From a virus: a stretch of 16,211 nucleotides of DNA. The notes beneath the pieces were generated by a model that saw nothing but the letters and a program-made list of their open reading frames with translations, searched no databases and was not told where the DNA came from. Positions 15 to 15,292 of the stretch are shown one piece after another. The stretch is from the UHGV virus genome UHGV-0116392, one strand, 5' to 3'. Position numbers and translations under genes: made by a program. How positions within the stretch are numbered: position 1 is the stretch's first letter; each line of letters opens with the position of its first letter.

Positions 15-137
15 TTACGTTTTGGGGAAATTATGAGGGGATCTCTCAGTGCTGAGTATCGTCTGATAATCAGGCGCACTGATCCCCTCCGCGGTTACCT
101 TTGCAGATAAACCGAGAGAATCAAGGTTCAGAGCCAT
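15..137 (-). pseudogene. Possible truncated baseplate J-like gene start (40 codons, then TAA)
   Basis: Minus-strand ATG at 137-135 overlaps the TAA of the upstream gene (TAATG coupling). It translates MALNLDSLGLSAKVTAEGISAPDYQTILSTERSPHNFPKT and stops at 17-15. This is the position where a baseplate J gene follows a gp25/W-like gene in contractile-tail clusters. Identity is inferred from position only. Confidence 0.3.
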
Positions 138-490
138 TACGCCTCCGATGTAACAGTCGTTATTCCATAGAGAGTGTCGATTTCAGCGGAAAACATGACA
201 CGTCGGGTCGTGGTATCCACCGTCGTATTGAAAGAGAGGATTGATTTAACGCCCTGCGTTTCCAGAATGCGTTTTCTGATCGCTAGGTTGTAAGTTTCCG
301 GTTTTTGCCTGCCCAGCACAGACTGGAACCACGGAGTCCCTTCGGTAGTGTCGAGAAACCATTGCCCATACCACAATTCGAATCGCGTTTTCACAGCCTG
401 TGCCACGGCCTCAGGCGAGTTAATCAGCCAGGTGTCATCACCGCTGCCAAAGGTGTAATCGCCATCGGCGTCTTCACGTCTGTATCGCAT
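137..490 (-). CDS. Small baseplate protein (gp25/W-like or DUF2634-like position), 117 aa
   Basis: ORF with ATG at 490 overlapping the stop of the spike gene. Size and placement between spike and J-like gene fit a baseplate wedge protein. No motif confirmed. Confidence 0.5.
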   Translation of the reverse strand: MRYRREDADGDYTFGSGDDTWLINSPEAVAQAVKTRFELWYGQWFLDTTEGTPWFQSVLGRQKPETYNLAIRKRILETQGVKSILSFNTTVDTTTRRVMFSAEIDTLYGITTVTSEA

Positions 491-1242
491 CAGTTTACCC
501 CGTCGGTACTGCTTCCACCGCGCTGAACACCGCCATGAGTGTGCGTATCATCGATTGGCTTGCCGTTAGCCTTAACGCTCCCCAAGAACTCAACAGCACC
601 AGTGATTTTTGAAGCCACGCCAGAAACAACAGACCCCACCATGCCTCCCATCCAGGTTAACAGGCCATGAATGGTTACTTTCTCAGAAAAATCAGCCAGA
701 GGGGCAACCACATCAAGGCCCCCCGGAGCGACAATTTTAATTTTCCTGGTATCAGGATTAAGCTCAAAATAGGTGCTGCCGTCATCACTACGCAACTGTG
801 TGGCACTGGTATTAATACCGCTAATCTTCCTTGCCTGCGACTGGGGACCGACAATACAAAACGCATCCGATAAATCATGCATTCTGTCATCGACCGGCTC
901 CTGTATCCCGCCACTCTGCCACCAGAAATCAATACAACGATCGGCAAAAATCACCAAACATTCATCACCGGCTTTAACTGGAAACGTTAGCGTACAGCCT
1001 CCGCCACGCGGGAATACCACTGGCACATCCACCAGCAATGGGTAATTTTTGGTAATGCGGTTGCCGTCGTTATCAATTTCAACGTAACGGATAGCAGGCT
1101 GTACAACCGCCGTCACCGCATCAGGAGCGAATGACTGAACAATGCCAGGCAAGGCGACACGGATCTGGTTCTTTGTTGTTTCCCGTTCAGATTTAAATGT
1201 TTCGGCAAGGTCGCCGCTGCGGGTCTGGTCAGATACTGCCAT
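490..1242 (-). CDS. Baseplate central spike protein (gpV/Mu gp45-like), 250 aa
   Basis: ATG at 1242 with GGAG upstream. The C-terminal HTHGG motif is consistent with a metal-binding spike tip. Assignment is by family resemblance and position in the baseplate cluster. Confidence 0.6.
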   Translation of the reverse strand: MAVSDQTRSGDLAETFKSERETTKNQIRVALPGIVQSFAPDAVTAVVQPAIRYVEIDNDGNRITKNYPLLVDVPVVFPRGGGCTLTFPVKAGDECLVIFADRCIDFWWQSGGIQEPVDDRMHDLSDAFCIVGPQSQARKISGINTSATQLRSDDGSTYFELNPDTRKIKIVAPGGLDVVAPLADFSEKVTIHGLLTWMGGMVGSVVSGVASKITGAVEFLGSVKANGKPIDDTHTHGGVQRGGSSTDGVN

Positions 1243-1261
1243 TTAGTAGGCTCCAGAAAGC

Positions 1262-1293
1262 AAAAAACCCGCCAAGTGGCGGGTTTGAATTTT
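1262..1293 (-). terminator. Rho-independent terminator downstream of the inserted two-gene cassette
   Basis: Plus strand reads aaaaaacccgcc-aagt-ggcgggttt. On the minus strand a perfect 6-bp GC stem (ggcggg/cccgcc, extendable with A:T pairs) is followed by TTTTTT. A-run and T-run on both sides make it potentially bidirectional. Confidence 0.7.
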
Positions 1294-1306
1294 GAGAAAT
1301 TTCAGC

Positions 1307-1735
1307 TTATGCAGTTAACGAGTCATCACCAATCTTCAGTAATTGATTAACGATTGCATCGACCTCTTCCGCATCCAGAATTACACTTCTCGCGGTAATC
1401 CGGTTGATTTTCCGCTCAAGCTTGTAATCAGAATTAACACGTTGGGCATGCGTCATTTTCAGTTTAACGCCGATTTTCTTTACTGCGTTAACATCAACAT
1501 CGTTAAGTGCAGCTGCCTCACCACTACAAAAGGCCGTATAGACTCGCATGTGAACTCCACCTTTTAGTTTTTCACCATCTTGTGTAGCGGTCGGTACCAG
1601 ATTGTTGGTGATCCGTAAGGCGGAATGGTACATACCATAGTATGCTCGGCTAATAGCATTTCTCGTCCACATCTCACCGTTTAGAGCCAGGGAATGCTTA
1701 GCCAATTCAAGAAAACAGGTATGCTCAACCGACAT
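1307..1735 (-). CDS. Hypothetical protein, 142 aa (cassette gene B; weak HEPN-like R-x6-H signature)
   Basis: ATG at 1735 overlaps the TAA of gene A (TAATG coupling). Sequence ...SRAYYGMYH... gives an R-x6-H spacing. About 43-45% GC by eye, lower than flanking tail genes. No family confidently recognised. Confidence 0.6.
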   Translation of the reverse strand: MSVEHTCFLELAKHSLALNGEMWTRNAISRAYYGMYHSALRITNNLVPTATQDGEKLKGGVHMRVYTAFCSGEAAALNDVDVNAVKKIGVKLKMTHAQRVNSDYKLERKINRITARSVILDAEEVDAIVNQLLKIGDDSLTA

Positions 1736-2466
1736 TAGAGTTCCCCGGCTTCAAAGCATCCGACGCATTCTGAATCCGCAAGCCCCGCAATAATAATCTC
1801 ATCAGCCAAGGCATTATTCATCTGCGAAAGAAGCACTGGATCGTCTGTTTTGACTTCAACGAACAGCGTATCAAGTTCTGACATTACATAAAAAACATGA
1901 GCGCCAGCAAGACGAGCGCGGTACTTTTCTGCAACGTTCATCATGAGCCGCCCAATAGTTTTTAGCTCCTGAGCATGATCTTTTTGGGTATGCAGATAAT
2001 TGAGCGTGTCATACCATTTGCCCATATCTTCAGGGCGCGGTACTTCCATTGCAGTTAGCATCGGCATCACCTTTTCAAGCAAATCGATATCAACCCAGTA
2101 TGCAGAAATTGTAGCAACCTCAGCCAATATCGTTGGATTAAGTGAATCAGATGCTTTCTGAATCATCACATACTGGCGAGCATGCAAACCTAAGTTACGC
2201 AGCGCAATCGTATAGTTACAAAAAGAAACTGGATCGTTAGGCGCTATTCTCAACCCCCGCTCACAGAGTGAACATCCTTCATCTATTTCACCAAGAACAA
2301 GCTTAGCTAAGCCTTCAATTGATAGCCCCTGATAACGTTCAGGTAGTTTCTTCGCTTCACGAATGATTCGATGGATTTCAAACTCACTCAGAAGGTTTTC
2401 ACCCTTAGTTAATGAAGGAGTCAGAAGATCTAACAGTTCTCCTGATTTTGGCTGCGCTAAACTCAT
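1735..2466 (-). CDS. Hypothetical protein, 243 aa (cassette gene A; two CxxC pairs)
   Basis: ATG at 2466 after a 150-bp intergenic gap. Contains CSLC near the N-terminus and CVGC at the extreme C-terminus. Lower GC than neighbours. No family recognised. Confidence 0.6.
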   Translation of the reverse strand: MSLAQPKSGELLDLLTPSLTKGENLLSEFEIHRIIREAKKLPERYQGLSIEGLAKLVLGEIDEGCSLCERGLRIAPNDPVSFCNYTIALRNLGLHARQYVMIQKASDSLNPTILAEVATISAYWVDIDLLEKVMPMLTAMEVPRPEDMGKWYDTLNYLHTQKDHAQELKTIGRLMMNVAEKYRARLAGAHVFYVMSELDTLFVEVKTDDPVLLSQMNNALADEIIIAGLADSECVGCFEAGEL

Positions 2467-2615
2467 GTTTTAGTTATTCCTGGCTTTAATGAAGTAGCAT
2501 ATCGATGGCAATCCACCATCAAAAAGTCAGTGCAGTGTAATCGCTCGTCTCAAAAAACAACAGTTTTTAGAGCACATTTTGTTGTTTTTCAGGCGTTACG
2601 AATTTCAGGTTACCT

Positions 2616-2948
2616 TCACCCAGCCACTTTTTTACAAGGGAAAGATCCTATGATTTTCGGCGCATCCATGCTGTTCTGCAGAAGCTGGACATTCAGGAAA
2701 GCTTTTCCGTTACGTTTCACAAACTCAAAGCCGTAATTGTTACCATCACGGGAAGGCATCAGGCCCATGTCCATTTTTATGTTTGAATAGTCACCATCTT
2801 TTCCCAGAAATTTTATCTTCTGTGATGTGACAGTTTCACCGTTAATAACAGTCATTCCGTCACCGGTCATCGTGTAGTTGCCGCACTGAATTGCAGCCAT
2901 CGCCGGAGCAGTAACCATCATAACTAACGCCAAACATAACCGTTTCAT
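2616..2948 (-). CDS. Small secreted/periplasmic protein, ~110 aa, with cleavable signal peptide
   Basis: ATG at 2948-2946 overlaps the TAA of the hub gene (TAATG), with AGAGGG Shine-Dalgarno upstream. N-terminus MKRLCLALVMMVTAPAMA-AIQ has a positive n-region, hydrophobic core and AxA site. The mature protein has two Cys. The six-frame track's start at 3026 is an upstream in-frame extension inside the hub gene. Confidence 0.6.
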   Translation of the reverse strand: MKRLCLALVMMVTAPAMAAIQCGNYTMTGDGMTVINGETVTSQKIKFLGKDGDYSNIKMDMGLMPSRDGNNYGFEFVKRNGKAFLNVQLLQNSMDAPKIIGSFPCKKVAG

Positions 2949-4012
2949 TAAAGCCCTCTTTCCCTCGCTGATGAGGAAACAAGATCCGCCGCGCCACGCG
3001 CTTCGCACATCATATCCATGTACCACGCCTGGCCCCTTGTATCGCCAGTGTACATAATCCCGCGCACAATATAAACGCCATCCGTTGCGATGCTGGCAGG
3101 TTGTGCTGTGGTGCCGCTGAGTGTGATATTTCCGTCCGTGTTCTGGTCGGTGCTCTGCCCACCAGCCATCGCAATATCATTGTTCGACAGCGCGGTGCGG
3201 TACACGGAAGCCTGATCCAGCTGAATAAGCCCGTTAACCCGGATGTTCGGATTAATAAGCGCGCGGACGTTTACGCCGTTACCGATAGTCTGCTGCGGCA
3301 TGCCAATAAGCCCGGTAGCGCTGTTGAGCACAATCGCTTCATGAACATATTCGTTATTCGCCACCATCTGGCGCTGACCGTCCACGAATTGCCATGTTGC
3401 GCCACATTGCCCGGCTACGTTATCCATTAGATGCCGCGTCATGCCAAAGAGTACCCGCCCCCGGGGGAATACAGTAGCAGGCATTTCAGGCGTCAGGCCT
3501 TCGGTCGCGCCTTTGGCCTCAAAGTCTTTCATCAGCGCACGGTTTACATCAGCGACCGTGTAACCGGCAGCCAGCGTCTGTGAGGTTATACTGGTGGCAA
3601 AAGCCAGATCAGTATCGGCTGCCTGAATCAGGACGTAGGAATCAACCGGGCTGTCTTTTCCTGTGACCGAGTAGCGAATTTCACCGCTGAAAATCAGTCC
3701 GTAGTTGCGGCCATCACTCTGGCCCACGTCCGCCGCATCAACCTCCCGCACGGTCCCGACATCGCTTGCCGACACCTCCGGCGCGATACCGTCGTAACCC
3801 GCAATCAGACGCACTTTCGAAAACTCCTGCCCGGTAATTCGGTTCACAGTATCTGCCGAGAGGTTATAAATTTTGATAGTCCCTACCCGGGACGCGCTGC
3901 TGATGTTGAACCAGTCGATCGTAAAGGTGACTTTGAAATCACTTAGCTCAATTCCCTGACCGTTCCCGTCCACAAGCTGCAGCTCGAAATGTCTCATCCA
4001 GTTCTGTGTCAT
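2948..4012 (-). CDS. Baseplate hub protein (gp27/gpD/XkdQ-like position), 354 aa
   Basis: ATG at 4012 with GGAG at about -10. Size and placement after the tape measure and two small genes fit a hub. Family not confirmed by motif. Confidence 0.5.
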   Translation of the reverse strand: MTQNWMRHFELQLVDGNGQGIELSDFKVTFTIDWFNISSASRVGTIKIYNLSADTVNRITGQEFSKVRLIAGYDGIAPEVSASDVGTVREVDAADVGQSDGRNYGLIFSGEIRYSVTGKDSPVDSYVLIQAADTDLAFATSITSQTLAAGYTVADVNRALMKDFEAKGATEGLTPEMPATVFPRGRVLFGMTRHLMDNVAGQCGATWQFVDGQRQMVANNEYVHEAIVLNSATGLIGMPQQTIGNGVNVRALINPNIRVNGLIQLDQASVYRTALSNNDIAMAGGQSTDQNTDGNITLSGTTAQPASIATDGVYIVRGIMYTGDTRGQAWYMDMMCEARGAADLVSSSARERGL

Positions 4013-4014
4013 GC

Positions 4015-4317
4015 TTACTCCGTTGATACCAGTAAATGACTGCGCCCGCCCAGGTCAGTTTTCGTGGGATAATCCTGTGTGTTGTCATCGCAGACCACCA
4101 ACAGCTTAAAACCAAGTCCCATACAGGCGTACTGCGCCAGCAGGTCGGCACCAGTGACGAGAGGAATACCGGAGATTACCGGCTCCCCTCTGTCGTTCTG
4201 CAGGTCCATAATCCAGTACAGATCGCGCCATATGATGCTAATCCGCCAGGTAACACCACCTAAGACGATGCTGAACTGCTGGTTGTCCGCTGTCAGCGGA
4301 ATTTCCTGAATTGTCAT
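4015..4317 (-). CDS. Tail/baseplate assembly protein, 100 aa (uncharacterised)
   Basis: ATG at 4317 abutting the stop of the upstream gene; tightly packed within the tail operon. Confidence 0.5.
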   Translation of the reverse strand: MTIQEIPLTADNQQFSIVLGGVTWRISIIWRDLYWIMDLQNDRGEPVISGIPLVTGADLLAQYACMGLGFKLLVVCDDNTQDYPTKTDLGGRSHLLVSTE

Positions 4318-4856
4318 TAGCCGCCCCCCAGTAATGACGCCACGTTACCCGTGATGCTTTTCAGCAGTGAAGTATCTGGAGGCTTTGTGGTTTTGTTGCC
4401 GCTATTCTGTACCGCCGACGTGCTGGCCCCTTCCTTCATGTTGGTTTTATCCGCGACGGTAATCTGCTGTGTCCGGGAGATAAGGACCTCCCTCAGGGTG
4501 AGGACGGCAGACAGGACGTTTTCGGTTGTCTTGTCCGTCGTCACTTCCAGCGCCCGGATCAACATGTTGCTGTACAGTCGTTTACCGGTTACCACATCGA
4601 AGGGGATACGGCTTTCCTGCAGATCCAGTAGCTCCTGATACGTCTGCTGAGGACTCAGGCCGAGCAGGCTGGTAGCCGTCAGATTACTGGCAAAATCCAG
4701 CAATGCGCCGCCACCGGCGAAACCAACCTCCATCACCACTTCTGACGGTTTTTTATAGGCATGATCAGCGACAGCGGCCCCAACCTCTACCGGATGCTCT
4801 GTTATTTCAAGCATATCTGTATGCTTCTCTGAAATAACAACACTGGGAACAATCAT
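4317..4856 (-). CDS. Tail protein downstream of tape measure, ~179 aa (uncharacterised)
   Basis: The track ORF begins at a GTG at 4904 overlapping the tape-measure stop. An internal ATG at 4856 is preceded by AGGA at -7 and is preferred as the start. Confidence 0.5.
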   Translation of the reverse strand: MIVPSVVISEKHTDMLEITEHPVEVGAAVADHAYKKPSEVVMEVGFAGGGALLDFASNLTATSLLGLSPQQTYQELLDLQESRIPFDVVTGKRLYSNMLIRALEVTTDKTTENVLSAVLTLREVLISRTQQITVADKTNMKEGASTSAVQNSGNKTTKPPDTSLLKSITGNVASLLGGG

Positions 4857-4903
4857 TCCTATTTTTCTGCTCTGCTGATGAAAAAGTGTAGAGAGAATAT
4901 CCA

Positions 4904-6892
4904 CTAACCCACCCTCACCTGATTACTTCGCATGACCTGAGCATTTGCAGACTGTTGCCGACGTGCAACCTCATTACCGACAGCGTGCGGATCTCCGCCA
5001 CCGTAAATGTGGTAGGTATTTTGCTGGTTAACCTCTGTCACTTTGCCACTAATTCCCGCCACGGCAGCCTTATTAATCAGCTCTCGAGAATAGATATTTC
5101 TTCCATTCTCATGCTGGATAATGCTGCTCATCAATGCTGACATGGTTTGCGGATCGCTCATATTCAGGGCAGCCCGGGGATCCACTCCCAGTCGTTGCGA
5201 TACAGCCCTGATATACGCAGTTGTGTTGTTATTATCAGACGCAGGTGCCCAGGTAGAGATAATTTTCTCCACACTGTTTATTCCCCGTCCGGCGTACAGC
5301 ATTAACTGACGAGCAAGAGCCCGTAATCCATCAAAGGCAGTTTCAAATCTGGCAAATCGCCCGCCCGGGCGTTCAAGAGAAGCCCCTGCCTGACCAGCAA
5401 AATTAAGGTTTCCCGGATTGTTATTCCGTTCTCCTCGTTTCGTAGCCTGTGCATGTTGTTCCGGCTCATCATCACCAAACCAGCCGCGTACCGTCCGGCC
5501 CACACTGCGGGGATCAAATCCCCAGTGCTCTTTAATCCAGTCGGCAGTACTGTTAGCGCTGTCTGTAACCATCGGCATCGCTGACGGATTTTCGCTGCCC
5601 TGATTAAGTATCTGTTTGCCGATGCTGACGGCATCAGCCCAGCGGCCATCTTTGATAGCGTTGAGCAGGTCGGCGATCATGTTCAGCATTTTGCTGAATT
5701 CGCCCATCTGGTCGATGAAGTTGCTGAAATCCCACTTCAGGGACCATGATTTGGGGTCAATATTGAGCAGTTTCGCCAGCGCTTTCACCAGGTCGTTAAC
5801 GGTCGTTTTAAGGTCACGAACCATCTTCAGCGCGGCATCAACCTCCGGTTTCCACTTGCCCCAGTCAATCAGGCTGTCGCCGCCTTCCTTCCAGGTCTGA
5901 TAGTCCTCCCACAGGAGGGCAATCCCCGCCGCCAGCGCGGTAATGAGGCCAATCGGCGACATCCAGAACGTACTGTTCAGAATGCGCAGCGCAATCGTCA
6001 GTGCGCCAAACAGCGAGATCAACTCCCGCGTTTGCTTATCCAGCGATTGCCACCAGGTGATGAGGCCTGATGTCCCCTCAATCAGTCTGAAGAACAGCCG
6101 CCCGATAATATCCCCGAGCGCCAGAATGCCTTTTATGGCTTTCGTCAGGGTCTGCTCGATACGCGGGAAGTTGTCCAGGATATGGCGGCGCAGTGTGTCC
6201 AGCGAACCCGCAAGCCCACCCGCAAGATTAGAGCCGATTTTGTCACGGGCCATGCCTGCCATCGCGCCAAACTCACGCAGGGAGGTCATAAATTTGTTGG
6301 AGCTTCTGGCCGCCTCGTCAGCATTGAAGCCGATAGCTTTCGCCATTGCGCTGTACTGCCCGGAGAAGCCACCCACACCGCGACGCATAGCCAACAGGGT
6401 ATTTTCGTCAATGCCCAGCATCTGCGCATACTGGTTAGCACGGTAATACGGCATGTCGCTGAGCTTCTGGCCTACCCCTGTAAAAATAGCGGCCATGTCA
6501 CGCATGTTACCGCTGGCATCCCGTGTCTGTACCCCCAGACGATTCAGAAATCCCTCCGCCCCGGGATTATTACGAATAAACCGGGAGAGGTTTTCCAGAG
6601 AAGATCGCGCAGCGTCCACGCTGCCGCCAACCTGCGAAACCGCATAGCCAATAGACTGAATTCCCTGGACTGTCGCGCCGGTGCGCTGTGACGCCCAGTA
6701 AAGATTATCCAGGCCGGAGGCGATCTTAGCCGTGAAGGCCACCACGGACAGCGCCGCTCCTTCGACGGCCAGCCCCATTTTGATGACATTTGCAGTTGTA
6801 CCGGCGAGGACAGAACCGAATTTTTTCGCTCCTGCATCATCCACACTGAAGCCAAGCGAGACAAGGAAATCTTTAATAGTCTCGGCGTTCAT
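4904..6892 (-). CDS. Tail tape measure protein, ~662 aa
   Basis: Largest ORF, directly downstream of the chaperone gene. ATG at 6892 is preceded by GGAGAGAGGA; the track's start at 6913 is an upstream TTG. The protein is Ala/Gly/Leu-rich with a hydrophobic segment (LISLFGALTIALRIL...LITALAAGIALLW) and a distinct C-terminal region. Confidence 0.8.
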   Translation of the reverse strand: MNAETIKDFLVSLGFSVDDAGAKKFGSVLAGTTANVIKMGLAVEGAALSVVAFTAKIASGLDNLYWASQRTGATVQGIQSIGYAVSQVGGSVDAARSSLENLSRFIRNNPGAEGFLNRLGVQTRDASGNMRDMAAIFTGVGQKLSDMPYYRANQYAQMLGIDENTLLAMRRGVGGFSGQYSAMAKAIGFNADEAARSSNKFMTSLREFGAMAGMARDKIGSNLAGGLAGSLDTLRRHILDNFPRIEQTLTKAIKGILALGDIIGRLFFRLIEGTSGLITWWQSLDKQTRELISLFGALTIALRILNSTFWMSPIGLITALAAGIALLWEDYQTWKEGGDSLIDWGKWKPEVDAALKMVRDLKTTVNDLVKALAKLLNIDPKSWSLKWDFSNFIDQMGEFSKMLNMIADLLNAIKDGRWADAVSIGKQILNQGSENPSAMPMVTDSANSTADWIKEHWGFDPRSVGRTVRGWFGDDEPEQHAQATKRGERNNNPGNLNFAGQAGASLERPGGRFARFETAFDGLRALARQLMLYAGRGINSVEKIISTWAPASDNNNTTAYIRAVSQRLGVDPRAALNMSDPQTMSALMSSIIQHENGRNIYSRELINKAAVAGISGKVTEVNQQNTYHIYGGGDPHAVGNEVARRQQSANAQVMRSNQVRVG

Positions 6893-7124
6893 TATCCTCT
6901 CTCCATTTCTCAATGCGCCGCTGGTTATCCGCTTTTACCGCCAGATGGTCATTCAAGAGAGCAATGTCGTACAAATCGACAGAGCCATCTTTAAGTGCTG
7001 TATAAGGAATTAACCCGGCGTCAACCGGATTGAGAAGGTAGGACAGCCCGTCCGGCAGGCTGTTAAACGTCAGCCCTGTTGCAGGCTCTGCGTCGTGCTG
7101 GTAAGGGGTGTAGGCAAAAAATTT
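6873..7124 (-). other. Programmed -1 frameshift extension of the tail assembly chaperone (lambda G/GT analogue)
   Basis: Slippery heptamer A_AAT_TTT at 7124-7118 in the chaperone frame (codons GGA AAT TTT TTG). The -1 frame is open without stops from there to TAA at 6875-6873, checked codon by codon. It runs past the chaperone stop and overlaps the tape-measure start. Confidence 0.7.
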
Positions 7125-7522
7125 CCCAGCGAATCGGCGACCACCCGCGCCACCAGCTGCAGCATGACCAGCAGGTCAATATCATCAAACATCAGTTCGC
7201 CCTGGGTAAATACCGGCACCCATCCGTCCATATGACGCCGCGATACCACCGCAAGACAGGGATGAATAATCGCATCGGTGTCATCTTCGGTCAGGGAAGA
7301 CAGTTCCTCAGCGATACGCGGGAGCATGGTTTCAAACACCGGTTTTAACTGCTCGAATTTCACGGTGTCGATTTTGCCGTCAGCAGGCAAACGGGAGCGA
7401 ATGCTCCCGAAATCTGACATCATTCCCGCCAGTACCGGCAGAAGTTTGCGGGTCACTTTCAGCTGGTCAAAAACGCTGAGTTTTGCCACGCGATATTTCA
7501 CGCCTTTGATTTCGAATTCCAT
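7070..7522 (-). CDS. Tail assembly chaperone, 150 aa
   Basis: Lies between the tube and tape-measure genes, with ATG at 7522 and GGGGAG upstream. It contains the frameshift site near its 3' end. Confidence 0.7.
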   Translation of the reverse strand: MEFEIKGVKYRVAKLSVFDQLKVTRKLLPVLAGMMSDFGSIRSRLPADGKIDTVKFEQLKPVFETMLPRIAEELSSLTEDDTDAIIHPCLAVVSRRHMDGWVPVFTQGELMFDDIDLLVMLQLVARVVADSLGNFLPTPLTSTTQSLQQG

Positions 7523-7525
7523 GTA

Positions 7526-7966
7526 TTAAAACTCCCCGAGAACCTGGTCAATCTTGCCGCAGTCAAACACCCACGGCATCGTATTACCGGTTTTAGCGTT
7601 GGCATTATCCGGTTGTTTCTGGAACGCAACACTGCGTGCCGTGATGATGTCGCCGCTGACCTTGTTGCGGATCACGATAACGTTATTCCCCCATGTGGCA
7701 GAAGACTGGCTCTGTGCGTTATACGCCAGCGACAATTTTTTATTTGTCGGTGATGTCTTCAGAAGGTTAACGGTAATCGTCCCGCTTTTATCTGCATGGA
7801 GGCTGTGCATCACTTCACCATCAGCACCGATGGTCATGGTGTTTTTAGGACCGCCCATCGCAACCACAATCCCCTCTTCAGAACTTGCAGAACCGTACCC
7901 GAGGTCAATCGAACCGGTCGGGCCGGTCAGCGTCGCAGTGACATCCATAAAAGAATAGGTAGACAT
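7526..7966 (-). CDS. Tail tube protein (DUF3277-like), 146 aa
   Basis: Immediately downstream of the sheath gene. N-terminus MSTYSF and size fit the tube of DUF3383-sheath-type contractile tails. Confidence 0.7.
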   Translation of the reverse strand: MSTYSFMDVTATLTGPTGSIDLGYGSASSEEGIVVAMGGPKNTMTIGADGEVMHSLHADKSGTITVNLLKTSPTNKKLSLAYNAQSQSSATWGNNVIVIRNKVSGDIITARSVAFQKQPDNANAKTGNTMPWVFDCGKIDQVLGEF

Positions 7967-7976
7967 TCACTTCCCC

Positions 7977-9122
7977 TTAGCGAACAACGTTAATCTGTAC
8001 GTCAGCGTAATGAACCGCGCCTGCAAGTTTTATTGCAGCCTGAATCACCGGAGCCTTACGGGCTTCACGTTCTGATTGTGCCTGTTCATCCAGCGGCTGG
8101 GCGTATACGTAATAACCTTTGGGCAGTGTGTCACCTGATGACAACTGACCAAGGTCGCCCCCGTTCCATACGCCCGGAGCAATCAGTCCATTCTGAACGG
8201 CCTGATCCAGTGATTTTTCAACATTTGATAACAGTCGGGTAATACCGGCTTCAGTCTGGGGAACTTTCGTGGTGCTGGTATAAAGCAGGTTATAGAGGTT
8301 GGTCTGCACATAATTCTGTAACCAGTCCAGGCCGTGGCGTTCATCAAAGAAATCGCCGTTAGCCATCACTCCCTGCTGGAGGATAGCCGTATCATTCTGG
8401 TAGTACACGAATACATTGCAGTTTTTTGCATCAAGTGCCGATGCCTGGCTGACTGTCAGTGTTTCATACCCGACACCCGGCTCCTGCTTAAACTTGAGCG
8501 TAATCGCGGTATTACTGCCATTGAAATTAACCGTGAATACCCGGCCAAATGCAGATAACGCAGCGTATTTATTACCCGATGAATACTGAATAAAACTGCG
8601 TGAATATCCGGCGGTTTTCAGTTTTGATGCCAAATCATCGCTGGATGCAGTCTGCAGGCATTTATCATCGCTTGTCGTAATCGCCAGAATACGGCTTACA
8701 GAAGAGGATTCGATCGCCGCAGCCACTTTCAGCCAGTCTGCATCCGGAATATCTTCATCGTCTGCAATCCCCAGCCCATACCATGAAGTATAATCGAGCA
8801 TGGCATTCACAGCCTGCTCCAGCGTCTCAGGCGTGGCCTGTTCGCTGTCACCCTTCGTTTTCACCCAACGACCAACAAAAACCTCCTGAGGTTTCGGTGA
8901 TTGTGAGAAAAACACCTGCGCAGCCTTATATTCTGGTGATTCCACGCCAAAATCTTTTCCAATATCTTCCGCGGCAGAATAACGGCGAATGCGCTCACTT
9001 ACCGGAATGATTGTGGACGGGCCGAGAATGAGTAATGCACCAAAATTTCGCCCTGATGCTGCACGCGGCGACATGATCACATCAACATTAACAACGTTTG
9101 ATACAGGCAAGCCCTGTGCCAT
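7977..9122 (-). CDS. Tail sheath protein (small DUF3383-type), 381 aa
   Basis: Size and sequence character fit the short sheath family, followed by tube and chaperone genes. ATG at 9122 with GGAG at about -10, only 3 bp after the terL stop. Confidence 0.7.
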
Positions 9123-9125
9123 AGC

Positions 9126-10406
9126 TTAATCTCCGAAAAAGATGACTGGTGCTTCCACCAGCGATTTAATACCGTACTCGCGCACAACCTTCCGGCGCAG
9201 GCGCACCGTCATATCGTAGCGGCGGACCCATTGCTGATTAATAAATTCAGGGAAGGGGGTCAGACCTGTGTAATCGCCAAGAGACAGCCCCAGCGCATTC
9301 AGTGCTGCATTGTTCTGCGGTACAGATATACCGTCACGAAACCGGGACGCATACACCATCCCCGCCGGACCATAAAACGAAGCCATACACTCAATCGTTT
9401 CATGCCGCCAGAGCTTAGAGCCATCATCGGTCTGTCTGGTGAATGCCGGACTGTCATCACCTGACCATCCGATACCCAGTTTGATATGCGCATCAACGGC
9501 AGCCTGTACCCATTCGGATGGAATCAGGACGCCTTCCGCTGATGCGCTGTAGTTCAGATCAAGTTCCTGTGCCACCACCACCGGATTATCGATTTTCTCG
9601 CATTCCCTGCGATACCACTCTTCATCCTTGCGAGGATCATCCCGCCAGTGGAATGTGAATACCGGTATCTTCCCGCCATGACGCTTCTGAGCGAACGGGT
9701 TAGCCATGCCGTTAACTGAACTCAGGTCGATACGGCAACGCGTCGTTTGTGACAACGCCGCATCAATCAGCAGAGGACGCTGAAGGAATGCAGCCTCATC
9801 AACCAGATAAAGCGTGGTACGGTCACCACGACCAATATTATCGCCAGCCTCGCCTTTGATAACGGCACCAGTTTCAGGAAACTCAACACGCATATATGGC
9901 GCGTGCTTCTTCTCACTCCACGAACCGCGAAACTCTACAGGTAGCGTTTCCACGAACTTGCGCGCCTTCCAGAACAATGCTTTCGGGTCACCAGTGCTGT
10001 CGACGTATTCCTCTTTACGGGAGCCAAAACCGATAACCATTTCTTTGTTGAAGAGACAAAGCGAGCATGCCAGTCCGATCGCGGTCCAACTGAGCCCCAT
10101 TTCACGGGATTTTTCGGTAATACCATTCTCCCGATTGCTCCAGCGTTCCATAATCCAGTGGATCCACTCCTCCTGCTTAGGGAAGAGTAAAAACGGAATG
10201 GTCACCGGCAGGCCATAATCAATATTACGCGGGTCCGTTGTCATGCCCCAGTCGATGATGAACTGAGCCGGATTGGTTCGGTAAAACTGTTTTAGTGCAG
10301 GCAATATTTCAGGATTCTGGCGAATGCGCTGTAGGCGTTCCATCCGCCATTCAAAAACCATCTGGTAATCAGGATGTTTAAAATCGAAGGGGAATGGTAA
10401 CGGCAT
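9126..10406 (-). CDS. Terminase large subunit, 426 aa
   Basis: Deviant P-loop KSREMGLS (lambda gpA-like KSxxxGxS pattern) around residues 95-105 and Walker [10 protein letters not shown] around residue 200, followed by a C-terminal domain of nuclease-domain size. Lies 2 bp downstream of terS. Confidence 0.8.
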
Positions 10407-10408
10407 AC

Positions 10409-10960
10409 TTAGCCCATCATTTTTCTATACGCTTCTGCAACCTGCTCCGGCGTTAAGTTGGTAATTTCTGTTCTGACTGGTCCTCCGTCAGCACCAGTCA
10501 CTTCATTTTTGACATTGTCTTTAAACGCCTGAACAGAAACATGACGCCCGAGCAACTCAAGGTTTTTAACCTTATCAGGCCATTTGATTTTCTTCAGAAG
10601 TGCGGCGCTATCTGCGGATGCCATCTCCACGACATCCATTCCTGATAACGTTGTGCGCCATACCTTAGGCCAGTCTTTAATGGGTTTTAGCTCACCGTTT
10701 TGCAGGAGAATGTCAAGCACATCCATCTGGTCGATTTCAATAAGGCGATTAAGTACATATTCTGCATTAATACCAACAAGATCATTGCGTTGCGCTTTCA
10801 GTTCGGCGATTCTTAACTTGATGTCAGGTTTTGACAGGTTTTCGGATGCGGTACGGTTGGCTGTTTTTGCGCTGTACCCCGCCCGAATAGCCGCTTGCGT
10901 GGCGTTTAAATCGATGAGGTACTCGCGACAGAACATCTCTTGCTTGTCTGTGAGTGCCAT
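10409..10960 (-). CDS. Terminase small subunit (Terminase_2/P27-type), 183 aa
   Basis: N-terminus [30 protein letters not shown] is the characteristic HTH start of this family. Immediately upstream of terL. Confidence 0.85.
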
Positions 10961-10980
10961 TTTTTCTCAAAGGTGAATTT

Positions 10981-11412
10981 ATGAGCTCATTAACGTTTAT
11001 CGGATTGTCACAGTTACTTTCTAGGAAAGGTGAGTTATTACAGCAAAATACGAATGATTTATTAGAACGTGTTAACACCGCATGGAATAACAAACGAGAC
11101 CTTAATAAGCAAATTTCCATAGAGCTAAATGATGGAGAGCTTGAGGTTTCAATTCCACAGCTACGCTTTAAGTGTTTTACAGAAAGTAAGCTTTCACTTC
11201 ACGAAGGCTCATTAATTGGGGTTATTACTTTTTACACATCGCGAGATGGAAAAAAACAGGAGTTTCATAAAATTTTTCTTGATTGGAACAATTGCATGCA
11301 TTTTGGGGCGCTTGACTCAACAGCTCCAATAGACATCGACTATACCGAAGATGTTGAGTATCTCTTTATGAACGCTCTAATCGATTCTGCTTATCGAAAT
11401 AATTTAATCTAA
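10981..11412 (+). CDS. Hypothetical protein, ~143 aa; AT-rich orphan gene divergent from terS
   Basis: The only convincing plus-strand gene. ATG at 10981 is preceded by AAGGTGA; the track's start at 10954 is an upstream GTG. GC is visibly much lower than the rest of the window. No family recognised. Confidence 0.6.
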   Translation: MSSLTFIGLSQLLSRKGELLQQNTNDLLERVNTAWNNKRDLNKQISIELNDGELEVSIPQLRFKCFTESKLSLHEGSLIGVITFYTSRDGKKQEFHKIFLDWNNCMHFGALDSTAPIDIDYTEDVEYLFMNALIDSAYRNNLI

Positions 11413-11759
11413 TTGATGTTGGTGGTGAACTTTTGCCACCCAGTTAATCACTCTTAGCAGGATATAAGCCATTGTCGAGACCACTCATTGAATGGTCTCT
11501 GCAATAACCGATGTCTTTCCATCAGTCCGCCACCACAAAGAATCTTTTTTGCCATAAGGCAGGAGGTTCATCTTTCAGTGGCTGCCAGTGTTACTTCCCC
11601 ACTTTCTGGCTTGGGTTGTTTCGCTGTACTGCCGTAACTGGTGGTGCACAGATTTAGTTAAATCTGTTCTCGCCTGAACTATCTTTTACATACCCGGATT
11701 GTGGGGATGTAAATCACGGTTTCATTATCAAGCCCACCCGTAGATGGGCTTTGGAATGG

Positions 11760-12482: not shown

Positions 12483-12920
12483 TTATTTCAGGCACTGAGT
12501 CCTGATGTACTCCTGCAGGTAGTTAACCTGCGCGGTTATCCTGTCGATTCCGCTTCGTAGACGGTAATAATTGAGTTCAGCATCTGCTGTAAGTCTTGGG
12601 CTTTCTCCATCGCCCATGCTGCTGGCTCCGGTCGTTGACTTTGCACAGGTGGCGGCGACTTGCAGGCGCTTACGCCCAGCAGAAACATCAGCACGGAGAC
12701 TTTCGATAGTCGCGTTAGCATCAGCAAGCTCCTTTGTGTATCTGGCGTCGAGTTCTGCTATATCACGTTGACGCTTCTGCATGTCAGCGATGATGGATGC
12801 GGCTTTGTCGCGCTGCTCTTTGTAGGCGATGGCGTTATCACGGTAATGATTAACAGCCCATAACAGGCAGACGATGATGCAGATAACCAGAGCGGAAATA
12901 ATCGCGGTTACTCTGCTCAT
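12483..12920 (-). CDS. Rz: Rz i-spanin, 145 aa
   Basis: [40 protein letters not shown] matches lambda Rz: N-terminal TM anchor then coiled-coil periplasmic domain. ATGA overlap with R. Confidence 0.9.
12536..12727 (-). CDS. Rz1: Rz1 o-spanin lipoprotein embedded in Rz (+1 frame), ~63 aa
   Basis: ORF wholly inside Rz in another frame. It has a signal peptide with lipobox (LLGVSAC) and a Pro-rich mature region ([16 protein letters not shown]), the architecture of lambda Rz1. Confidence 0.8.
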
Positions 12921-13393
12921 ACCTCAATCTCTCTGACCGTTCCGCCTGCTTCTTTGAATTTTGCAATCAGGCTGTCAACTTTATGCTCGAACTGACCATA
13001 ACCAGCGCCCGGCAGTGAAGCCCATATATTGCTGCAACGATCGATAGCCTGACGGATATCACCGCGATCAATCATCGGCAAAGCGCCACGCTCCTTAATC
13101 TGCTGCAATGCCACAGCGTCCTGGCTTTTCGGAGAGAAATCTTTCAGGCCAAGCTGCTTACGATAGGCATCCCACCAACGGGAAAGAAGCTGGTAACGGC
13201 CTGCAGCTGTTGATTTGAGTTTGGGGTTTAGCGTGACAAGTTTGCGAGGGTGATCTGAGTAATCAGTGAATAGCTCTCCGCCAACAATGACGTCATAACC
13301 ATGATTTCTGGTTTTCTGACGTCCGTTATCAGTTCCCTCTGACCACGCCAGCATATCGAGGAACGCCTTACGTTGATTATTGATTTCCACCAT
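12917..13393 (-). CDS. R: Endolysin R (lambda-type lytic transglycosylase), 158 aa
   Basis: [39 protein letters not shown] matches lambda R with only a few substitutions; 17-nt overlap with S as in lambda. Confidence 0.95.
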
Positions 13394-13700
13394 CTTCTAC
13401 TCCGGCTTTTTTAGCAGCGAAGCGTTTGATAAGCGAACCAATCGAGTCAGTACCGATGTAGCCGATGAACACGCTCGTTATATAAGCGAGATTGCTACTT
13501 AGTCCGGCGAAGTCGAGAAGGTCACGAATGAACCAGGCGATAATGGCGCACATCGTTGCGTCGATTACTGTTTTTGTAAACGCACCGCCATTATATCTGC
13601 CGCGAAGGTACGCCATTGCAAACGCAAGGATTGCCCCGATGCCTTGTTCCTTTGCCGCGAGAATGGCGGCTAACAGGTCATGTTTTTCTGGCATCTTCAT
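13377..13700 (-). CDS. S: Holin S (class I), 107 aa, with dual-start motif
   Basis: [39 protein letters not shown] matches lambda S; Met1-Lys2-Met3 at 13700/13694 is the S107/S105 dual start. Confidence 0.95.
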
Positions 13701-14230
13701 GTCTTACCCCCAATAAGGGGATTTGCTCTATTTAATTAGGAATAAGGTCGATTACTGATAGAACAAATCCAGGCTACTGTGTTTAGTAATCAGATTTGTT
13801 CGTGACCGATATGCACGGGCAAAACGGCATGAGGTTGTTAGCGCGACCTCCTGCCACCCGCTTTCACGAAGATCATGTGTAGAAGGCCGCAGCATAACTA
13901 TCACTGATGAATTCAGGATAGCCAGTGGCTACGGCTCAGTTTGGGTTGTGCTGTTGCTGGGCGGCGATGACGCCTGTACGCATTTGGTGATCCGGTTCTG
14001 CTTCCGGCATTCGCTTAATTCAGCACAACGGAAAGAGCATTTATGGCTCGCATCGCGGGAAAAAGCCCACGGTAGAGAGTCGAACTCTACAAATACTCTT
14101 ACCTGTTGTGCGCTCCGTTTCGTGGAGCTAACGGCGACGCTAGTACCGGTCTATGCGTCGCACCCTTGAGGGATTTACTAAGGCGACATGCCCGTTGTTA
14201 CCCACTCAATTGGACCCTCCCCGTCGCCAT

Positions 14231-14258
14231 CTGGGTCTAGTCAGGAATCGAACCTGCC
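14231..14258 (-). other. tRNA-like 3' fragment (T-arm plus acceptor-like tail), not a complete tRNA
   Basis: Minus strand reads cAGGTTCGATTCCTgactagaccca, i.e. the conserved GGTTCGATTCC T-arm followed by an acceptor-like tail. No matching 5' acceptor or D-arm within ~90 nt; the only partial complement (gggtctt) is 108 nt upstream. Confidence 0.35.
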
Positions 14259-14532
14259 GAGGGTACATTTGAATGGGTGCCCATTATTAATCACACCGGG
14301 CCAGTGCGCCGAATTTGGTAGCTGGGAGTCGGAAGACCCAGTGATTTTGGTTTCTTAGGCCGCCATCAACATCAAATCATCGTTTGCATTTATCTTTGTG
14401 GTCAGTTTCTAAAAACCCGCAAAGTCGCCAACTCTGACGAAAACTATCGTTGTGCTGCCACAACGATAAGAGCACTCGGTGCATTTAAGCCAAGCCCCAT
14501 AAGGGAGAATGCTCTTACCTGTTGTGCAAACG

Positions 14533-14564
14533 CAAAAAGCCCCGAGCTATTAACTCAGGGCTTT
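14533..14564 (-). terminator. tR'-like rho-independent terminator downstream of pR'
   Basis: Minus strand reads aaagccctgag-ttaatag-ctcggggcttttt, a roughly 10-bp stem with one G:U-type mismatch plus a U-tract, about 30-60 nt downstream of the pR' -10. Confidence 0.7.
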
Positions 14565-14597
14565 ATTTAACGAGTGCATTTATCCATCGTTGGGTCA

Positions 14598-14626
14598 AAT
14601 TTACCCAACTTTATTCAAAAAGTCAA
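14598..14626 (-). promoter_or_regulatory. Late promoter pR' (Q-dependent antitermination/qut region)
   Basis: Minus strand TTGACT (-35, plus 14621-14626), 17-nt spacer ttttgaataaagttggg, then TAAATT (-10, plus 14598-14603). This is near-identical to the lambda pR' sequence as I recall it and lies directly downstream of Q. Confidence 0.85.
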
Positions 14627-14668
14627 TATCATGCCGTTAATATGTTGCCATTCGTGGCAATCATGCTG

Positions 14669-15292
14669 CTAACGTGTGACCGCATTCAAAATGTTGTCTG
14701 CGATTGACTCTTCTTTGTGGCATTGCACCACCAGAGCGTCATACAGCGGCTTAACAGTGCGTGACCAGGTGGGTTGAGTAAGGTTTGGGATTAGCATCGT
14801 TACAGCGCGATATGCGGCGCTTGCTGGCATTCTTGAATAGCCGACACCTTTGCATCTTCCGCACTCTTTCTCAACAACTCTCCCCCACTGCTCCGTTTTG
14901 GCTATATCAACCGCACGGCCTGTACCGTGGCAATCTCTGCATCTTGCGCCCGGCGTCGCGGCACTACGGCAATAATCCGCATAAGCGAATGTTGCGAGCA
15001 CTTGCAGTACCTTTGCCTTAGTATTTCCTTCAAGCTTTGCCACACCACGGTATTTCCCCGATACCTTGTGTGCAAATTGCATCAGATAGTTGATAGCCTT
15101 TTGTTTGTCGTTCTGGCTGAGTTCGTGCTTACCACAGAATGCAGCCATTCCGAATCCGGCTTGTGATTGCGCCATCCCCATAGCAGCCATCACATCAGTA
15201 CCGGAAAGAGAGTCAGAAGCCGTGGCCCGTGGTGAGTCACTCATCATCGGGCTTTTTGGCGAATGAAATTTAGCTACGCTTTCGAGTCTCAT
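14669..15292 (-). CDS. Q: Late antiterminator Q, 207 aa
   Basis: [44 protein letters not shown] matches lambda Q. ATGA overlap with ninI. Confidence 0.95.

Follow-up and report, generated by a model that had tools for sequence, protein, structure and literature searches.

Probable microhomology deletion of the head module in a defective Escherichia coli prophage with a contractile tail

The window analysed here, a 16,211-nt stretch of viral DNA (UHGV virus genome UHGV-0116392), raises the question of how a phage late region can pass from terminase genes straight to a contractile tail sheath gene. All genuine genes of the window lie on the minus strand, and the two that pose the question are the adjoining ORFs 9126-10406 (426 aa) and 7977-9122 (381 aa). 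A sequence-only reading had taken the first of these for a terminase large subunit (TerL), had noted that portal, scaffold, capsid and connector genes were missing, and had proposed a defective prophage with a precise deletion, head genes located elsewhere, or a tailocin-like particle that retains terminase genes. The missing genes were rightly reported, since profile and ORF searches of the whole 16,211 nt found no portal, scaffold, capsid or connector gene. We consider it highly probable (roughly 0.92) that the window is a prophage late region, from a defective E. coli element that has lost its head module to one microhomology deletion. The prophage would belong to a family that combines lambdoid early and lysis genes with an E217/Pam3-type contractile tail, and a single illegitimate recombination at a 4-bp TATC would have removed ~7.2 kb, from terL codon 313 to codon 68 of the neck/tail terminator gene. 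What the locus presents is ordinary prophage decay and no new kind of tail-only particle.

Composition of the ORF upstream of the sheath gene

Judged from its sequence, ORF 9126-10406 (identical to WP_001130786.1 / EHN87173.1 of E. coli H494) is a chimera of TerL and a neck/tail terminator and no terminase large subunit; the earlier identification applies to residues 1-312 only, residues 313-426 being those of the terminator. A PHROGs profile search matched residues about 33-333 to phrog_2 (TerL, E=1.6e-19), and residues 1-312 are 99% identical, with three differences, to the same residues of TerL (540 aa) in L001, an intact prophage of E. coli QA-1986 630 (NZ_CP101920.1). The corresponding DNA (9471..10406, codons 1-312) comprises the ATPase part of the gene and shares 97.6-99.9% identity with the 5′ portion of the full-length terL (540 aa) in L001 and in the further relatives L021-L038, the match always stopping at 9471/9472. 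The N-terminal ASCE ATPase domain is present, with a readable Walker-B-like LYLVDE. Pfam is blind even to the intact 540-aa TerL, and the TerL identity is accordingly drawn from PHROGs, PDB homology and how relatives are annotated.

The remainder of the ORF (9126..9470) holds terminator codons 69-182 and the stop. Residues 311-424 match positions 36-150 of the 153 in the terminator model PF23961 (E=2.3e-24), compared with positions 2-150 for intact relatives, in which residues 24-180 are aligned, and residues 311-426 match positions 66-180 of 181 in phrog_1973 (E=1.2e-52). Fusion residues 313-426 equal the C-terminal 114 residues of the terminator (69-182), the joint residue being common to both parts (TerL Ile312, terminator Ile68). 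The first 68 of 182 terminator residues (37%) are lost, corresponding to Pfam positions 1-35 of 153, or 23% of the conserved model. These 114 residues therefore resemble terminators of the Pam3 gp12 / E217 type (PF23961, E=2e-24), whereas the absence of the N-terminal docking loop and of the first 35 model positions makes the ORF a fragment and an incomplete member of that family. The protein is deposited under the name ‘phage neck terminator protein’ and forms a single-member cluster. In a PDB sequence search with the intact terminator, matches to WD40 proteins (FBXW7) were spurious and that to Pam3 gp12 was weak (E=0.32); neither adds to the Pfam assignment.

At the other end of the ORF, the native terminator-sheath intergenic junction (9123..9134) places the stop TAA at 9128-9126, a GCT spacer at 9125-9123 and the sheath ATG at 9122-9120, with a GGAG at 9134-9131, 8 nt before the ATG and within the final codons of the upstream ORF. 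These base positions agree with the sequence-only reading, which had described a 3-bp gap with the sheath Shine-Dalgarno inside the 3′ end of the upstream gene. The 3-bp spacing recurs in intact L001 (stop 14353, ATG 14357) and in every other relative compared, and the tight junction has a native look, being simply the terminator-sheath boundary of the intact phages; its stop, Shine-Dalgarno and spacing came to the fusion ORF from the terminator gene. The impression of native gene packing without a scar is thus correct for the stop-ATG junction but not for the ORF itself, which contains a scar at 9471-9477; lying 350 bp upstream, the scar escapes notice because the fusion is in frame. In the same way, the proposal of a defective prophage with a precise deletion can be retained, although not the placing of that event at the stop-ATG junction.

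The genes on both sides are those of a phage late region. The intact sheath gene (7977..9122) encodes a 381-aa contractile sheath of the DUF3383 / E217_gp31 type (PF11863, E=7e-101; phrog_205) and is followed by genes for the tail tube (7526..7966, 146 aa; PF11681, E=9e-61), a tail assembly chaperone (7070..7522, 150 aa; PF21822; phrog_1688) and a tape measure protein (4904..6913, 662-669 aa; phrog_2276, E=9e-283) whose C-terminus is muralytic-like (phrog_873 and phrog_7182 over residues about 481-657). The baseplate block (137..4904), recognized from profile searches and from the H494 neighbourhood, comprises a Dit-like tube initiator (4317-4904), plug (4015-4317), hub (2948-4012), spike (490-1242) and sheath initiator (137-490), with a cargo slot of three ORFs (1307-3026) inside it. 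PADLOC made no defence-system call on the fusion ORF or the cargo ORFs and gave one marginal HEPN_IX match. Upstream lies an intact terS gene (10409..10960) for a terminase small subunit of 183 aa (PF03592, E=7e-40; phrog_51) and, further on, the late regulatory and lysis genes (12483..15292), assigned from the annotation of their L001 homologues: the Q antiterminator (14669-15292), holin (13377-13700), endolysin (12917-13393) and Rz (12483-12920). A tRNA search of the window found none.

The breakpoint in intact relatives

In L001 the genes run in the order terS (183 aa), terL (540 aa), portal, MuF-like, DUF2213 scaffold-like, cement and major capsid, followed by four small head-completion/neck genes, the terminator (182 aa) and, after a gap of 3 bp, the sheath. 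Against L001, the window matches 5286-6776 and then 14002-20860. Nine complete genes lie between the two breakpoints, and the missing length ranges from 7232 bp (against L001) to 7378 bp (against L034). The event carried away the TerL nuclease domain, the portal, the MuF-like head morphogenesis protein, the scaffold-like, cement and major capsid proteins, the four small neck-region genes, one of which encodes an E217_gp27-type adaptor, and the N-terminus of the terminator. The intact gene order is also found in the deposited phage genome vB_EcoM-611R5 and in all 20 further loci retrieved through the exact sheath and terS proteins (among them L036, with fragmented calls for terL and portal, and three others with an alternative terminase pair), giving more than 20 intact relatives overall. 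In the public collection, 1345 blocks encode the exact terS protein and 758 the exact sheath protein. At the ten terS places shown, an intact 540-aa terL comes next in nine, L036 with its fragments being the tenth, and a head module is present in all ten.

The sequence-only reading had pointed to related intact prophages as the place to look for a deletion breakpoint, and the comparison locates it at 9471-9477. A 3.1-kb BLAST query over the locus split sharply at query positions 1524-1530, equivalent to window 9477-9471, and none of the 41 phage records and 457 complete E. coli genomes matched by BLAST spans both halves contiguously. In every comparison, including those with L021-L038, the terL-side match ends at window 9471/9472 and the terminator-side match at 9477; a breakpoint shared by more than 20 independent relatives is no chance pattern. 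To define the junction (9471..9477), three sequences were aligned together: the window, the terL flank (L034 11441-11531) and the terminator flank (L012, L010, L016 and L034). Base by base, the terL side reads ...AAACTGGGTATC|CAGCC, the terminator side ...TTTGGGGTTATC|GGATGG and the window across the junction ...AAACTGGGTATCGGATGG. The two sides share an exact microhomology of 4 bp, TATC, at 9474-9471 on the minus strand, within an imperfect extended homology (GGGTATC versus GGGTTATC), and the base-by-base comparison places the crossover within the TATC. The deleted length is 2 mod 3, which exactly offsets the frame difference between terL and terminator; the frames would have matched by chance (1 in 3), leaving a continuous 426-aa ORF. 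Synteny and high identity on either side of the gap, the loss of essential genes and a defined breakpoint are together the features of a defective prophage, and none of the observations speaks against the deletion itself.

Carriers and age of the deletion

The exact 426-aa protein is encoded on 22 contigs, among them an 853-kb scaffold of E. coli H494 (GCA_000242035.1), the isolate assembly GCA_014636555.1, Logan assemblies of two SRA runs, ENA metagenomes and one IMG/VR prophage contig. Since independent assemblies carry the exact fusion protein, the junction is a real allele. Over 10.4 kb the carriers do not differ from the window (100% identity), and the intact prophages L010, L012 and L016 match window 9477-49, from the breakpoint through the tail module, with no mismatch over 9.4 kb. 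This zero divergence from intact prophages makes the deletion very young, and its youth in turn allows no inference on selection for or against the tail genes. The deletion is also rare. The junction is absent from all 5426 of 5426 complete E. coli genomes, and exact 28-mer junction scans gave no hit in GTDB species-representative genomes or in JGI metagenomes and one prophage contig in IMG/VR.

The H494 copy allows the flanks of the locus to be followed beyond the window. Its 10 kb upstream contain exo/bet/gam, kil, cIII, sieB, N and cI, then Q, the lysis genes and terS, and its downstream sequence is readable for ~18 kb from the fusion ORF, or ~9 kb past the left edge of the window, through tail and baseplate genes, baseplate J, wedge, fibre, tail-fibre assembly and invertase genes into non-phage genes. 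No head genes were found within the 10 kb upstream or the ~9 kb beyond the left edge, so that the suggestion of head genes located elsewhere finds no support in these flanks. Neither of the two observations that were to speak against a headless locus was made: no head genes were found directly beyond the window, and no plaque-forming phage was found to share the junction. In H494 the SOS-type cI repressor (S24-peptidase) is intact and a fibre segment is invertible.

Comparison of H494 with the relative L032 reveals a second microhomology deletion, in which cII, O, P and ninB-F are lost and cro(1-32) is left joined to ninG(about 61-203). The reading frame is kept in this deletion as in the first, and a second loss of this kind marks a prophage in progressive decay. 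The window and the H494-type copies have different Q/lysis cassettes upstream of about position 11642 of the window. This two-cassette pattern reflects either recombination with another lambdoid prophage after the deletion or a chimeric metagenome contig; a shared region of 2 kb, 99.8% identical, is where the window contig could be chimeric.

Consequences for the particle and competing readings

The sequence-only reading had proposed examining TerL for its nuclease residues, and these prove to be missing. In the intact TerL, residues 293-523 align to solved nuclease domains (8dkr_B, E=3e-33; Sf6 gp2, 5c12 and 4idh). With this domain at about 295-523 and the TerL part of the fusion ending at 312, ~18 nuclease residues are kept: the RNase-H-like nuclease domain is gone, and the DVADEGRD segment, which aligns to the Sf6 active-site region, is absent. 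As for the terminator, the Pam3 tail uses one such protein to cap the tube as well as the sheath, with an N-terminal loop that docks the head connector, a β2-β3-β8 protrusion that stops the tube and a C-terminal β9 that stops the sheath (PMC9942802). On the evidence of domain coverage, on which the loss of terminator function rests, a truncated terminator carrying 312 foreign residues would not be able to form the hexameric cap, and with no such cap the tails made on induction would be unfinished or unstable. We infer that the element can neither package DNA nor build heads, the loss of portal, capsid and TerL nuclease leaving no heads, no packaging and no infectious particles. On induction the Q-dependent late operon would still be expected to express lysis and tail genes, the tails lacking a proper terminator cap and the fusion protein itself presumably being functionless.

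An assembly error, with the junction misjoined in a metagenome contig of low coverage, can be set aside with near certainty. The window does derive from a ~6x contig (NODE_1348, ENA ERZ1755928) and differs from the deposited contig at four bases, but the same junction and 426-aa protein occur in the independent isolate assemblies of H494 and GCA_014636555.1, as well as in two SRA runs assembled by Logan, other ENA metagenomes and the IMG/VR prophage, and a microhomology of 4 bp is too short to cause an assembler misjoin. Slightly more plausible, yet still very improbable, is a helper-dependent mobilizable element that would obtain heads and TerL in trans from an intact relative and be packaged through its own terS/pac region. 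terS is intact and its protein is shared without change by a very common family of intact prophages, and the occurrence of the same deletion with two upstream cassettes suggests exchange between prophages. However, no carrier genome is known to contain a helper, at 100% identity the carriers form a clone, the H494 copy lacks replication genes and the dedicated hijacking genes of satellites are absent; moreover, the window-type context comes from the ~6x contig, which may be chimeric over the 2-kb region of 99.8% identity.

The sequence-only reading had also allowed for a tailocin-like particle retaining terminase genes, and here the question becomes whether the headless remnant, which in H494 is also replication-less, is a nascent tailocin, producing SOS-inducible bactericidal contractile tails released by its own lysis genes. 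We regard this as unlikely, if somewhat less so than a helper-dependent element. The genes for sheath, tube, chaperone, tape measure, baseplate, spike and fibres form a complete set that does not differ from that of intact phages; Q and the holin, endolysin and Rz genes are kept; H494 retains the S24-peptidase cI and the invertible fibre segment; and both its deletions, being in frame, still allow translation to continue into the genes that follow. Temperate phages, furthermore, become tailocins when their portal or capsid genes are deleted by engineering (PMC10670071). Of the tail set, however, the terminator alone is truncated and fused, the other tail genes being intact, and this sole terminator lacks 68 of 182 residues, or 23% of the Pfam model, behind a foreign N-terminus of 312 residues. 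Head genes are absent, as are the replication genes of H494, but an intact terS and the TerL remnant, useless to a tailocin, are still there. The locus, moreover, is represented by one protein sequence on 22 contigs that are 100% identical, its zero divergence from intact prophages gives no sign of selective retention, and the variant is rare: 22 contigs against 758 (sheath) and 1345 (terS) blocks, with none among 5426 complete E. coli genomes, GTDB representative genomes or JGI metagenomes. With its terminator truncated, its deletion too young for selection to show and its carriers few, the tailocin option is disfavoured. It is correspondingly doubtful that the locus is a snapshot of tailocin birth, headless, lysis-competent and SOS-inducible, in which the C-terminal part of the fusion, with the sheath and tube contacts that it keeps, would have to cap the tails.

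A one-step deletion in a decaying prophage has well-known counterparts among the defective (cryptic) prophages of E. coli, such as the cryptic lambdoid prophages of K-12, which were formed by internal deletion. Like these, the present element is lambdoid, has lost essential morphogenesis genes (and in H494 replication genes too) through short-homology deletions, and is left with fused or truncated ORFs among otherwise intact neighbours. Unlike them, it is much younger, with no substitutions over 9.4 kb and with tail and lysis modules still identical to those of functional phages. Its intact relatives are the Escherichia phages vB_EcoM-611R5, -606R2, -689R2 and -683R1 (ON470588 and others) and the QA-1986 630 prophage, with Brunovirus SEN34 more distant (~87% identical in the terS-terL region to the prophage family of the window); a literature search on the vB_EcoM-6xxR phages found no paper. 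These relatives share the gene order, 96-99.9% DNA identity on either side of the breakpoint and the 3-bp terminator-sheath spacer, but still possess the head module of 7.2 kb, together with complete TerL (540 aa) and terminator (182-187 aa) proteins. With R-type (R-pyocin-like) and engineered tailocins (PMC10670071) the element has in common a contractile tail cluster, a lysis cassette, a regulator and the absence of head genes, and it is formally the product of the first step in the supposed origin of tailocins. It differs from them in its truncated and fused terminator and in the terS and TerL fragment that remain, and, whereas natural tailocins are fixed, conserved loci, it bears no sign of conservation, selection or activity.

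The kind of event described here is well known and the sequence was already public, and the main value of the analysis is one of correction: the RefSeq ‘phage neck terminator protein’ WP_001130786.1, which from its sequence had been read as terL, is a deletion scar. It offers a clean, datable and exactly mapped case of the loss of a head module in one step through a 4-bp microhomology, in which an in-frame fusion can conceal the scar from gene callers. If active tails did come from the remnant, it would exemplify how tailocin evolution begins, but the truncated terminator makes such activity unlikely. The whole tail module, the lysis cassette, Q and, in H494, cI are intact, which leaves room for a functional role.

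The boundary upstream of terS

A mosaic boundary separates the window from the carriers of the head-gene deletion that resemble the prophage of E. coli H494 (JH590606.1) at about position 11642–11660. Downstream of it the two are nearly the same, with five mismatches and one gap that all fall within 10491–11652, and from 10490 to 49 they agree without any difference. Upstream of the boundary the cassettes differ. That of the window encodes a Rha-like regulator and Rz together with an endolysin of 158 aa, a holin of the holin_3_1 type and a 207-aa Q protein (PF03589), whereas in H494 the Q protein has 162 aa, the holin is of the holin_2_1 type and the lysozyme belongs to PF00959. The boundary reflects either recombination that followed the deletion or chimeric assembly of the metagenome.

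The window also departs from its own deposited contig (ERZ1755928 NODE_1348) at four bases, 11561, 11565, 11594 and 11605, all of them intergenic and lying between the Rha-like gene and a plus-strand ORF of 143 aa. At 11561 and 11565 the window has the bases of the intact relatives, unlike the other deletion carriers, while its bases at 11594 and 11605 are unlike those of all related loci examined. The ORF itself (10954–11412, 143–152 aa) is the sole convincing plus-strand gene of the window, lies immediately upstream of terS and divergent to it, and is conserved among numerous relatives, in which its called length is 143 aa; its product had no match in Pfam, PHROG or PADLOC. In the gap between Q and holin (13701–14668) the window has no tRNA genes, in contrast to the intact prophage of E. 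coli QA-1986 630 (NZ_CP101920.1), which encodes tRNA-Asn and tRNA-Thr at the equivalent position.

Terminase exchange and a second deletion among relatives

Three related loci (L019, L020 and L026) present an alternative terminase pair at 989–3107, a 249-aa protein and a 467-aa Terminase_3 protein, ahead of the portal, head and tail module that they share with the other relatives. These prophages are otherwise near-identical, and the alternative terminases are a module swap inside the prophage family. Comparison of the H494 prophage with the related locus L032 (1968–6447) defined a second deletion, of about 3.95 kb in total, in which cII, O, P, ren and ninB–F have been lost and residues 1–32 of Cro are fused in frame to residues about 61–203 of NinG (5966–6487 of the H494 locus). 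The deletion lies at a short homology, and both deletions of the H494 prophage have an in-frame fusion as their outcome.

Variable cargo and the tape measure protein

The interval between hub and spike in the baseplate module is a variable cargo slot, which in the window occupies 1307–3026 on the minus strand. It holds three minus-strand ORFs, one of 110–136 aa (2616–3026) with a signal-peptide-like N-terminus and two, of 243 aa (1735–2466) and 142 aa (1307–1735), that are translationally coupled. The 142-aa protein contains an Rx6H motif (RAYYGMYH) and has a marginal match to HEPN_IX (PADLOC, E=0.009). In the relatives compared (L001 20532–21166, L019 16176–17418 and L021 16178–16903) the same slot is filled by DUF4282, DUF2335 or a 241-aa ORF. 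The cargo of the window may be a moron, a defence cassette or a toxin–antitoxin cassette.

The C-terminal residues ~481–657 of the tape measure protein (4904–6913) match endolysin and tail-injection transglycosylase PHROGs, and the protein is probably a muralytic tape measure.
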